Shown: positions 50,299 through 61,056 of the stretch, in pieces | How the letters are laid out: each line of letters begins with the position of its first letter | Position numbering within the stretch: position 1 is the first letter of the stretch | Assembly (NCBI GenBank): GCA_964016885.1 | Contig: OZ024745.1 | Span: 24,738,001 to 24,802,000 of the forward strand | Origin: Eledone cirrhosa | Lineage: Eukaryota | Length of the DNA stretch: 64,000 nucleotides | Direction: 5' to 3' | Translations under genes and position numbers: made by a program | Notes under the pieces: generated by a model | What the model saw: only the letters and a program-made list of their open reading frames with translations | Databases searched by the model: none | Told to the model about the DNA's origin: nothing

Positions 50299-51426
50299 TT
50301 TGTATTAGTTTGGTATTGTTTGGTGTTGGTTTTTGTTTGTTTTTTGTTTCGTTATTTTGTTAGCTATATTTATTGATGTTGTTGTTTGTAATGTCGTTGT
50401 TGTTTAGCCCCAGGTCAATTCTAATTGGTCAGACCAAAGATCAAAGGTATTTCAACTGAGAGACTATTGCAGCTTTATATTTTCACACATAAAGACATCT
50501 AGGACTACATTATCAAATTTGTCTTTTGTGTTTTGAGACCTTAAATTTTTTTGAGGAAGAGGGTGTACTTGTGTGTGTGTGTGTGTGTGTGTGTGTGTGT
50601 GTGTGTGTGTGTGTGTGTGTGTGTGTGTGTGTGTGTGTGTGTGTGTGTGTGTGTGTGTGTGTGTGTGTGTGTGTGTGTGTGCGTGTGTGTGTGTGCGTGC
50701 GTGTGTCTGAGCTTGCATATGTGTGTGTGTTTTATTGTTAATGCTTTCTGTTATATCCCTCCCCCATCCCCATAGCAAACATTACGCTACACAAAACATT
50801 ACGCTTCCTTAATAATTTCCATTTCTTTTTTAACTGAGACATTCGTTTAACATCAACTGCTTCATGAATATACACACACATATATATATATATATATATA
50901 TATATTGTTATATTTGGGGAGGGTCATATTTGCGTAATATTGCCAGAATTAATAACAGAACACACTCACTGTTTGGTTGGTTTTCGCTTCTCGCTGTCTT
51001 TTATATATATATCTGCGATCTAACTTACTCGGTCCTCAATGTTGCCATTGACTGACCGGCGGTCAAAAATAATACAGATACAATATAGACAAACACATAT
51101 ATATATAGTTTACATAAATCTTTCGTTGCACATCTGCAACATCGTCAGTGGTGTTATATTCATTGTTCCTCCTGTTGTGTTGTATGTCTACGCCATTTTT
51201 TTTTTGTTCAGTCTGTCTATATATTTATTTATTTATTTATTTGCTTGTTTGTTTATCTTATTTTATTTTGTCTTCTTTGCGCATGCGTTTGCGTGTGTGT
51301 ATAGTGTTATGTGTGATGTGTGACTAGTGTGTATAGTGTTGTGTCTGCTGGGTGACTAGTGTGTGTTTATGTGCTTGTGTATGTATTTATTTATCTTATT
51401 TTATTTAATTTAATTTACTTATTTAT

Positions 51427-54400
51427 TTATACTTCTCTTAGGTCAGTGTTGTTTGTTTGGGTGTTGTTGTTGTTCCACTCATTCTTTCTGTTTAGCTTTG
51501 GTCTTCTAATTTCTATTTCACTGGCCTCTCTGATTTGCCTATCTGCTGGGTCATTCCTATGTTTAGATATTATTCTAATTTCTATGTTGTCTATGTTACC
51601 GTCATGATGTTGTCTAGCATGTTCGTATAGTACTGACCCGTTTTTTCGTCCTTTTAGTTCCCCCCAGTGTTGGTCTATCCTTTCACCTATGCTACGAGCT
51701 GTCTCACCTATGTATGTTGTTGTCGTGTTTCTGCAAGTACCCTCTGTACATCTTATGCTATAGACTACGTTTCTAGTTTTACAGTTTATCCGGGGGTTCA
51801 CCTTACATATGATACATTTCCTATTGGTACAGTGGGTTTTCTTAAAAGGGTAGGTTTTGCTGATCAGGGATTTTATGGTGGTTCCTGGCTTTTCTACCAC
51901 CTTTATTTTTAAGTGGGTCTTTCTCAGGGCCTTTCTACACTGGTTAGCTAATTTCCCTCCAGGGGTGGCGTCCACAAACATGACACTCTGATATCTCTGG
52001 TTGTCGTACCATGATGTGGCCTTCCCTATCTTATGTCTAGCCCTATCTAAGCTATTCCATGATTTGCTCCTGTATAGTGGGCAAATTCCTTTCATGTCCA
52101 GTTCTATGAGGGTCTTATACTTTTCCATGGCTCCTTCGTATACTCTGACTCTGTCTCTTTGGTTGTAGCCAGAGAACTGCATGCGGTTGATGAAGTGTTG
52201 GATGTGTCCTTCCATTTCTGTTGGGTCGCACATGCTGGACACATTCTTCATCACTCGTACCAAATCTGCGATCAGAATATTAAACTTAGCACTACTGGAC
52301 ATTGCTGAGTTTTTGAGTATCAGGTATTTGGAGGCCATGGGTTTAGCATAGTGTGAGTGGAGAATTTGGGCTCTCTCGTCTATAGTGTTAATCCAGAGTT
52401 CTGTGTCTAATACAGGTAGTCTATTGTTAGGGTGTTTGGAAGGGAAGTCTATAGTTACAGTTATACTCTGGTGTATGGAATTAGCTATCTGCTGGATGCT
52501 TTCCATCGTGCTACGTTCTAAATCAAACTTGTTAGTGCTCTCTAGTGGGGGTGTTCTTATAACTATATTGATATCGTCTACATAACGAGAGTACATGATG
52601 AGGTCTATGGAGCTTTCATTAAGGAGATCTTTAAGTCTCCTTTCCCACCATACCATGAAAAGGTTGGCAACATCGCCAGCTATGCTGACGCCGATGGCTG
52701 CTCCCTCATTTTGGGTGTAGATTTTCTCATTGAACTTAAATATGTGGCCCTTTAGGGTAGTTTTGATACTAGCCCCTATTGCATGTGCGACCATTTTTCT
52801 TACCTGATCAGTGTTTTGGGGGGTCCGTATAGCTTTGGTCCACCCAATCCACCTTCCTATGGGAGTCTTTTTAGCCATTGAGGTTATGGTGGGGGGTCTA
52901 CCTCTTATAGGTCTACTAGGGCAGAAACATCTAAGGTCATGGCTGTCTAGGTAGTCAGTGTCGTAGGTAAGTCTAAGTAGGAGGCCCAGTTCGTCTGTGT
53001 CGACGTCGCAGAACTCCACCTCACTCTCAATGATCATCTCCACACATCTTTTCACAGCAAAATCAATGTTAATGGATGGGTACAGTGACACCACATCCAT
53101 GCTGCCTATTATGCAGTTGGATAGGCTCCTGTTTTTGTTGCACTCACTGATTCTGCTGAGGAGGTCCTCTGTACTTTCACATACATCTGGGGACATCTTG
53201 ATTATGGGGCGTATAACCATTGAGAGGAAGTAGGAGATCCTGTAGTTGCTAGCTATATTAGCTCCGCATACAGGTCTTGTTGGTGGTCCTATTGTCGGGT
53301 CGTCGACTGTCTTGTGGTCTTTGCGGAGCCCATACAAGGGTGGTATGCCATTGTTAGACGCCTGGAAGTTGTTGGCAGTGCGTCTGCTTGGCTTTAGGAT
53401 GTCAGTCCACATCATCATGTGAGCGTTGAGGATTTTTTCTCTCCCATCGTGTGTTAGTTGTGCAACTTCGCTCGTGTTGGTGATGTGGGGTTGCATTGCC
53501 TCGATGTAGTTCGGCATGCTATCTATTGACATCCTACCAGACTTATCTGTGGGTAGACACACTACCTCACCATCCCTTGTGCGCTGCTTGAGGCTAACCA
53601 AGCCTTCTACAGGTTTTATCCCAAGTTGTTGGGCCTCTGGTCTGCTCTGTCTCATAGTGTACCTGTCTACTACTTGTCTAATCTTATTTCTAGCTATGGT
53701 GAACTGTGCCTCCGTCTCGTCATCTATTTGTTGTGGTATGCAAACTCTTTTATTAAAGGGTAACCTCGTAGGATAGATATTACCCATCTTATATGTTTTG
53801 TCAGCTGGGTTGAAAAATAGTTTCTCTAAGGGGTTGTCGTTATTTCTATCGTCATAGTTGTGTGTGTTGCTATTATTGTTATCATGGTGGTTGTTGTTGT
53901 TTCTATCCTTAGCATTAATATTATTATTGTTATGATTGCTAGATGTATTGTTGTTTACTTCACCGTTATTGTTGTTGTTGTTACTGCTATTTCTACCATT
54001 GTGGTTGTTACTATTATTATGTTTCTTGTTTTTGTTGATGTTGCTACATGTACTATTTCCATTATTACCACTGTGGTTATTGTTGTTGTTGTTGTTCGTA
54101 TTGTTACCGTTATTACTACTGTGGTCACTGTTGCTGTGTCTGTGGTTAACGTTTCTATTATTATTATTATCATTGTGGTTGTTGTTGTTCTGTCTATCGC
54201 TAGTATTATTACCATTATCACTATTTCTCACTTTCCTGCCATTGTTATGGTTATGGCTGTTATTTCTATACCCAGAGTTATTGTTTATATTACTACTACC
54301 GTTATTATTGTTGTTGTTGTTTACCTTTGCATTCCAACGTATTTTTGTGAAACACTTTTCCAGCTCCGTTTTGCATTCCATAGGATTAATCTTTTTGTAG

Positions 54401-60486: not shown

Positions 60487-61056
60487 ATAAATAAGTAAAT
60501 TAAATTAAATAAAATAAGATAAATAAATACATACACAAGCACATAAACACACACTAGTCACCCAGCAGACACAACACTATACACACTAGTCACACATCAC
60601 ACATAACACTATACACACACGCAAACGCATGCGCAAAGAAGACAAAATAAAATAAGATAAACAAACAAGCAAATAAATAAATAAATAAATATATAGACAG
60701 ACTGAACAAAAAAAAAATGGCGTAGACATACAACACAACAGGAGGAACAATGAATATAACACCACTGACGATGTTGCAGATGTGCAACGAAAGATTTATG
60801 TAAACTATATATATATGTGTTTGTCTATATTGTATCTGTATTATTTTTGACCGCCGGTCAGTCAATGGCAACATTGAGGACCGAGTAAGTTAGATCGCAG
60901 ATATATATATATAAAAGACAGCGAGAAGCGAAAACCAACCAAACAGTGAGTGTGTTCTGTTATTAATTCTGGCAATATTACGCAAATATGACCCTCCCCA
61001 AATATAACAATATCTGTTTCGACACACGATTTCATATAAAAAACCTCGCAAAACTA
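56916..61056 (+). mobile_element. Inverted, circularly permuted single unit of the same PLE
   Basis: Starts actaattcatcgcc and ends cctcgcaaaacta, which are contiguous in the intact copy (cctcgcaaaactaattcatcgcc); 3' end at (TA)n. Confidence 0.95.
60755..60822 (+). ncRNA. Hammerhead-like ribozyme in the PLE pLTR (also - strand at ~51090-51155 and ~55227-55292)
   Basis: CTGACGA-t-gttgca(gatg)tgcaac-GAAA-g...c-TA; core and stem II clear, stem I weak. Confidence 0.65.

Follow-up and report, generated by a model that had tools for sequence, protein, structure and literature searches.

Paired end sites and probable repeated reading of one RNA unit, perhaps a circle, in head-to-head Penelope-like insertions of Eledone cirrhosa

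How the tandem and inverted insertions of Penelope-like elements (PLEs) originate, and what the hammerhead does in these elements, is debated, and the published models invoke either a linear mRNA of multiple copies or a circular RNA. The subject of this analysis is a head-to-head PLE insertion in a stretch of 64,000 nucleotides from Eledone cirrhosa (contig OZ024745.1, positions 24,738,001 to 24,802,000; "the window", whose positions are used below). The family is a young PLE with thousands of near-identical ends. The type of element, its layout, its tail and the circle hypothesis were already known; what is new is the genomic evidence on mechanism.

The Neptune/Nematis PLEs, as presented in the available text of PMC8557442, resemble this element in having one open reading frame (ORF) that holds a reverse transcriptase (RT) followed by a GIY-YIG-type endonuclease and a CX2-5CxxC linker, and also in their partial tandems, an inverted copy truncated at its 5' end, a tail confined to one end and targets in microsatellites. 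Their tail is 30-40 nt long, whereas here it is 43 or 58 nt, and here an Asn-rich stretch precedes the RT. For Poseidon of Anolis carolinensis (PAc), the available text of PMC11167929 describes a PLE protein that in vitro cleaves and extends both strands at AT-rich targets, starting at two adjacent internal RNA sites that lie early in the ORF and define the tail, all of which resembles the reading given here. That text gives no difference in start site between the strands and proposes a linear multi-copy mRNA; in the present PLE, by contrast, the two ends nearly always use different sites and the turns share private alleles. In Adineta vaga, Penelope forms head-to-head inverted repeats, one inverted end bearing a tail, as well as inverted copies in permuted form, and has Asn-rich ORF inserts; the available part of PMC3846280 reads the structures as self-priming on an antisense template. 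Here, in contrast, each outer end is a canonical 3' end lying in (TA)n, in keeping with two primings on sense RNA.

A circle was tentatively proposed for autonomous PLEs in 2014: a hammerhead-cut RNA would be closed and reverse transcribed over more than one unit (PMC4209133, available text). RNA circles have been reported for the small non-coding retrozymes (available texts of PMC6765202 and bioRxiv 10.64898/2026.07.22.740005), whereas the allele-sharing evidence given below concerns a 4.1-kb coding element. In the main texts of openly available papers, the literature search turned up none that counts paired ends or shared alleles in an autonomous PLE. A comparison can also be drawn with L1 twin priming, in which cDNA is primed from two target strands and a 5' inversion with microhomology results. 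There the cDNAs cover different parts of one linear RNA, whereas the present arms share as much as several units of sequence and have starts separated by 43-58 nt.

The unit is defined here as 56920-61056 (4137 bp), with unit position u1 at 56920. A preliminary description had read the plus arm as exactly one circularly permuted unit opened inside codons 22-23 of the ORF, and self-alignment bears this out: the arm spans 56916-61056, or 4141 bp, which is the 4137-bp unit plus a 4-nt ACTA counted at both ends. It begins with ACTA-ATTCATC and ends with GCAAAACTA, which are neighbours in the intact element at K22-L23, and it runs from u4134 to u4137 one turn later. The minus side, first put at about 1.45 units, measures 1.453 (56908-50902, from u2222 round to u4094); its boundary is 50902, the earlier 50905 falling in an AT overlap with the flank. 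The identity claimed for the shared ORF region also holds, with 0 substitutions over 4096 shared bases (4098 columns) and one 2-nt TA indel between the plus arm and the full minus copy. The upstream minus fragment carries one substitution, which creates a stop at 56652-56654, and one A-run indel. The arms thus begin at different unit positions, 2222 (minus) and 4134 (plus), and differ from each other at three places; the overall shape is an offset inverted repeat rather than a mirror palindrome. At its centre lie a 12-nt tandem duplication (56894-56905 = 56906-56917) and the 4-nt ACTA/TAGT overlap, and (TA)n is present at both outer ends. The 8-mer CAAAACTA occurs at both junction sites; as a mechanistic requirement it was set aside, since no mechanism was found that needs it beyond the 4-nt pairing. 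The features of the insertion are as follows.

50881-50901, no strand: left (TA)n target flank, from the alignment.
50902-56908, minus strand: minus arm, a partial upstream copy plus a full copy, its 3' end at family site A (u4094, codon 9), which has 1979 exact genomic ends.
51106-51148, minus strand: hammerhead-like motif of the downstream minus copy, from self-alignment.
51427-55062, minus strand: intact ORF of 1211 amino acids, from an RVT_1 match, motifs and homolog alignment.
55243-55285, minus strand: hammerhead-like motif of the upstream minus copy, from self-alignment.
55563-56908, minus strand: 5'-truncated upstream ORF fragment with the new stop at 56652-56654, from the ORF list and self-alignment.
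56894-56919, no strand: head-to-head junction with the 12-nt duplication and ACTA/TAGT overlap, from the alignment; probably a product of end-joining.
56916-61056, plus strand: plus arm opened in codons 22-23, its 3' end at tail site B1 (u4137, codon 23), which has 857 exact genomic ends.
56920-60486, plus strand: ORF codons 24 to stop, from the ORF list.
60765-60807, plus strand: minimal type-I hammerhead-like motif (CUGACGA, 6-bp stem II, GAAA, self-complementary helix III region, CUA), from inspection and a duplex fold.
60988-61056, plus strand: ORF codons 1-23, including site A (61013) and the 43-nt tail to B1.
61057-61300, no strand: right (TA)n target flank.

Across the genome, the family ends at three fixed positions. 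Exact matches of an element end followed by (TA)n number 1979 at A (u4094), 857 at B1 (u4137) and 1528 at B2 (u15), and the tail is 43 nt (A to B1) or 58 nt long. The plus arm ends at codon 23 because hundreds of family copies end at B1; its 3' end being the family standard, only its start needs explaining. Head-to-head neighbours taken unselected, from the end positions listed for contig C1 over its first 174 Mb, pair an A with a B end in 34 of 35 cases, against 49% expected (P = 5e-10). The fetched survey drew on 252 genomic read-throughs of u1-29, 98 of them recovered on contigs C1-C3, plus targeted others; it is enriched for long arms, and arms were called with the author's own caller. Its 108 regions hold 75 head-to-head pairs with varied junction positions. 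All but one of the 62 fully typed pairs (61/62) are A+B, and in the remaining 13 of the 75 one end is cut off, masked or atypical.

Some further observations concern these sites. Single-armed long copies end at A in 19 of 29 cases and at B sites in 8, hinting that A is a more productive priming site than B. Short B-ended arms often stop 5-12 nt past A (u4082-4089; window 61001-61008), as if meeting the partner primer, a weak signal; a halt of B arms just past A was dropped as too weak to use, with 4 stops over the 825 nt at risk, a rate of 4.8 per kb where nearby sequence has about 2.5. At two places on G000:C1, near 147.2 Mb (L234-L235) and 268.9 Mb (L236-L237), whole two-armed insertions recur 2-3 times with the same junctions, probably through later segmental duplication.

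What was the template? The evidence comes mainly from haplotypes, compared over 266 arm-turns, an allele being called private when seen at only one of the 108 sampled loci. At shared-variant sites the discordance is 12.4% when loci are compared, falling to 1.3% for opposite arms and to 0.3% for turns of the same arm. Private alleles are present in every overlapping copy in 57 cases (30 of them in both arms), in some copies in 5 and in one copy in 173; where at least three copies overlap, the figures are 17, 5 and 49. Among the all-turn private alleles, 16 lie in the ORF body and 21 in the terminally repeated zone, and 40 arms of about 1.3 units or more yield 26 distinct all-turn allele sets (one empty). 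Repeat periods are likewise specific to a locus and constant within it (4147/4147, 4145/4145, 4117/4117, 4124/4124, 3991/3991). A mutation found in all turns arises in one unit, so some step copies one unit more than once; private alleles and periods that repeat across turns suggest that copies longer than a unit were read from one monomer, with a switch between linear RNAs as a possible alternative. The copy in the window has the majority haplotype and therefore contributes no private-allele evidence.

The hammerhead bears on how such a monomer might be closed. The site near 60807 proposed in the preliminary description stands by inspection, as the putative ribozyme at 60765-60807 with its cut predicted after 60807. 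It did not receive an Rfam score: no family reached the gathering threshold and no relevant one emerged by E-value. The pseudo-long terminal repeat (pLTR) contains the minimal parts of a hammerhead, namely core, stem II and a self-pairing helix III, and the core is kept in diverged copies. Long arms pass the predicted cut with no stop within 10 nt of it in 230 crossings, and no insertion-specific scars were found there.

Variants of the motif were also seen. Older truncated relatives in the window (about 75% and 85% identical; 4882-5187 and 40594-41765) keep the hammerhead core and differ in helix III. A 9-nt tandem duplication in helix III (the equivalent of 60793-60807) occurs in about 55 of about 255 sampled hammerhead regions, with another variant in 16; the duplication could allow the ribozyme to fold as a monomer. 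At a locus on G000:C8 near 29891042 (L078-L079), a one-unit arm is joined at B1 to a piece that ends 3 nt before the predicted cut.

On balance, we lean towards reading the locus as an insertion of a young PLE in (TA)n in which each cut end was primed at a different fixed RNA site and one unit-length template, probably a circle, was re-read. The endonuclease would nick both strands within (TA)n; priming, by way of 2-5 nt of TA pairing, would use A at one DNA end and B1 or B2 at the other; reverse transcription would then pass the unit boundary without a seam until truncated at random. The two cDNA ends may finally have been joined by microhomology with slippage, which would give the 12-nt duplication in a templated end-joining. 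The parts of this reading differ in strength. That one RNA unit was re-read from both ends we consider probable. Whether it was a covalently closed circle or was re-read by seamless template switching we hold, from the sequences compared, to be evenly poised; a closed circle would be the simplest seamless template, with switching among linear RNAs of one source as its close rival. Closure at the hammerhead site is possible, if somewhat doubtful. More tentative still is the fullest version, in which an autonomous PLE would move via a 4.1-kb hammerhead-closed circle, a dimeric RT priming at two sites 43-58 nt apart, rolling with strand displacement and sometimes stalling at its own or its partner's primer.

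Several points weigh against this reading. The circle is proposed here from genomic DNA, and a circle junction is identical in sequence to a tandem read-through. According to the available text of PMC11167929, hammerhead cleavage is dispensable in vitro, uncut RNA is the main template and no RNA-seq reads end at the cut. Two-armed loci are discordant at diagnostic sites in 5 of 52 cases, two of which may be neighbouring separate insertions. At G000:C1:181298128-181312896 (L100-L101) a 121-nt deletion is present in three plus-arm turns and absent from the minus arm, despite private substitutions common to both arms; it lies between 17-nt direct repeats and offers no GT-AG option, which rules out a spliced intron. 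Two arms have unequal periods (4126/4129 and 4110/4134). In addition, unsampled homogeneous source arrays could have handed down some of the alleles counted as private.

A circle-free alternative, the model of PMC11167929 in its available text, has a tandem source array transcribed into one long linear read-through RNA that is primed at two places. A homogeneous array would account for the shared haplotypes, and arrays of at least three units exist in this genome (3 arms). Linear copying, however, can neither lengthen an array nor put a new mutation in every turn, as the 26 all-turn sets in the 40 long arms would ask of it; the 3.29 + 3.24 units at G000:C6:30038001 add up to more than any sampled arm, and no recurrent split between first-turn and later-turn alleles is evident among 22 discordant inherited alleles. 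We therefore regard this explanation as unlikely. A linear template might instead be re-read if the RT moved between RNAs of the same source, either switching seamlessly where homology guides it or jumping from end to end. Template jumps are common in the family, as its multi-piece arms attest, one copy jumping from B1 to 3 nt from the predicted cut, and switching would permit occasional discordance between arms such as that at C1:181298128. Against it stand the long arms, which show neither a pile-up of ends nor insertion-specific scars at the cut, and the 21 all-turn private alleles of the terminally repeated zone, unexpected from a switch at one fixed RNA end; we judge it rather improbable, though worth keeping in view.

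Tandems might come from new copies landing next to old ones, and insertion beside existing copies is stated in the available text of PMC6765202. The arms might also have been made alike by later gene conversion, of which inverted repeats are in general capable. The turns, however, are seamless and share haplotype about 37-fold better than random loci do, and private alleles usually occur in every copy or in just one, seldom in a part of them, contrary to stepwise conversion; this explanation is very unlikely. Near-identical arms, and CAAAACTA as an 8-mer common to both junction sites, might suggest a fold-back in the assembly or an inversion at that 8-mer after insertion. No public contig crossed the junction in 4 runs, which therefore give the locus no independent confirmation from reads and, for a multi-copy element in other individuals, prove nothing. 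Yet the arms start at u2222 and u4134, each ends at a canonical site of its own beside its own flank, their sequences show three differences, the 75 head-to-head junctions sit at varied positions, and opposite-strand joints of the same PLE family appear in raw DNA reads of a related organism (two samples). An artefact or inversion is thus hardly credible.

To return to repeated reading of one unit from two primed ends, how much does the length of the plus arm add to it? The preliminary description had taken an arm that stops where it started as a sign of a circular monomer. That argument is weak, and a single unit-length arm is insufficient by itself for the circle claim; the re-read monomer draws its support from the shared alleles, the locus-specific periods and the lack of stops or scars at the cut. 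The 152 typed arms span 0.01-3.29 units, 77 exceeding 1.05 and 11 exceeding 2. For the 98 read-throughs recovered on C1-C3, 5' ends fall at 0.67 per kb overall, and the truncation rate along the unit varies between 0.26 and 1.55 per kb without a cliff; one near u3140-3270, hinted at by the first 19 loci as a transcription start, disappeared in the fuller survey. Only 5 arms, the studied one included, stop within +1 to +9 nt of one turn in about 121 first-turn passes of the windows surveyed (about 4 in 100); of the arms finishing a turn, about 96 in 100 read further. As the same region also stops pieces of other lengths, unit length is weak evidence for one lap.

A survey of other copies for unit-length arms speaks both ways. 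A junction pattern search found four starts at u4133-4137, the studied arm among them, all about one unit long with B-type ends; one belongs to a B+B pair on a small scaffold and another is a jump on the same strand. On C1-C3, two A arms overshoot one turn by 8-9 nt. Pooled, exact-turn stops number 4 besides the studied arm, where 0.64 would be expected (P about 0.004, in windows picked post hoc). Starts in the whole 23-nt region u4131-u16, however, are also raised about threefold, 10 against an expectation of 3.0 that is perhaps low, older copies matching the second pattern; a control window at u319 gave 1 start, near its background expectation of about 1. An advance prediction failed: none of 7 starts at u9-16 was a B2-ended one-turn arm, most being post-jump pieces, and no new starts were found at u1-8. 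A hot spot in the TA-rich priming region explains the one-turn stops as well as a one-lap stop does. For the plus arm itself, halting at a general hot spot that surrounds the priming sites is the more probable account, and a collision with its own start the less probable one. A linear hammerhead-cut monomer is ruled out for this arm, since the cut lies within it, 249 nt from the point of opening.

The identity of the element follows from its ORF and layout. The 1211-residue protein comprises, in order, an N-terminal region, an Asn-rich stretch, RT, a CX4CX2C linker and, C-terminally, an endonuclease of GIY-YIG type. The RT has YVDD near 52580 and an RVT_1 match (E 3.7e-5) below the curated cutoff; the linker, CTNRKCIIC at residue 1078 (near 51830), is kept in 11 of 11 aligned homologs, and in the same alignment the endonuclease core reads VVY...YIGET with two Cys plus R, H, E and N residues, two His following the core. 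Pfam returned no endonuclease match in the ORF, and a Pfam search of the whole ORF and a PDB sequence search found nothing. The DKG and GxKF/Y positions hold the variants DKSG and LPPKF, common to the homologs that cover them; the closest database protein, 69% identical, is labelled Octopus vulgaris. The endonuclease motifs lie C-terminal to the RT, contrary to the N-terminal endonuclease of Naiad/Chlamys. The available text of PMC8557442 defines Neptune/Nematis by a CX2-5CxxC linker before a C-terminal endonuclease and by a CCHH motif, and by those definitions the element would be an endonuclease-containing (EN+) PLE of Neptune/Nematis type. Its layout is also that of a PLE, with partial tandems (pLTR), an inverted 5'-truncated copy and a tail at one end, and its 4137-bp unit with an intact ORF differs from the small non-coding unit of a non-LTR retrozyme. 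The Asn-rich stretch is in frame, about 170 residues long, and lies before the RT at 53830-54320 (minus) and 57590-58080 (plus).

Elsewhere in the window, a 33-bp unit is repeated in tandem about 90 times over 8439-11678, its copies being about 90% alike, and three more minisatellite arrays lie at 13082-15202, 44343-47213 and 47298-48322.

For the debate on how PLE insertions arise, this young family offers a test at the scale of a genome, in which two priming sites pair strictly and each insertion carries one haplotype. Should the circle be confirmed, an RT related to telomerase would be copying a single RNA again and again from both ends of its target, and this would link the autonomous PLEs to the retrozymes.

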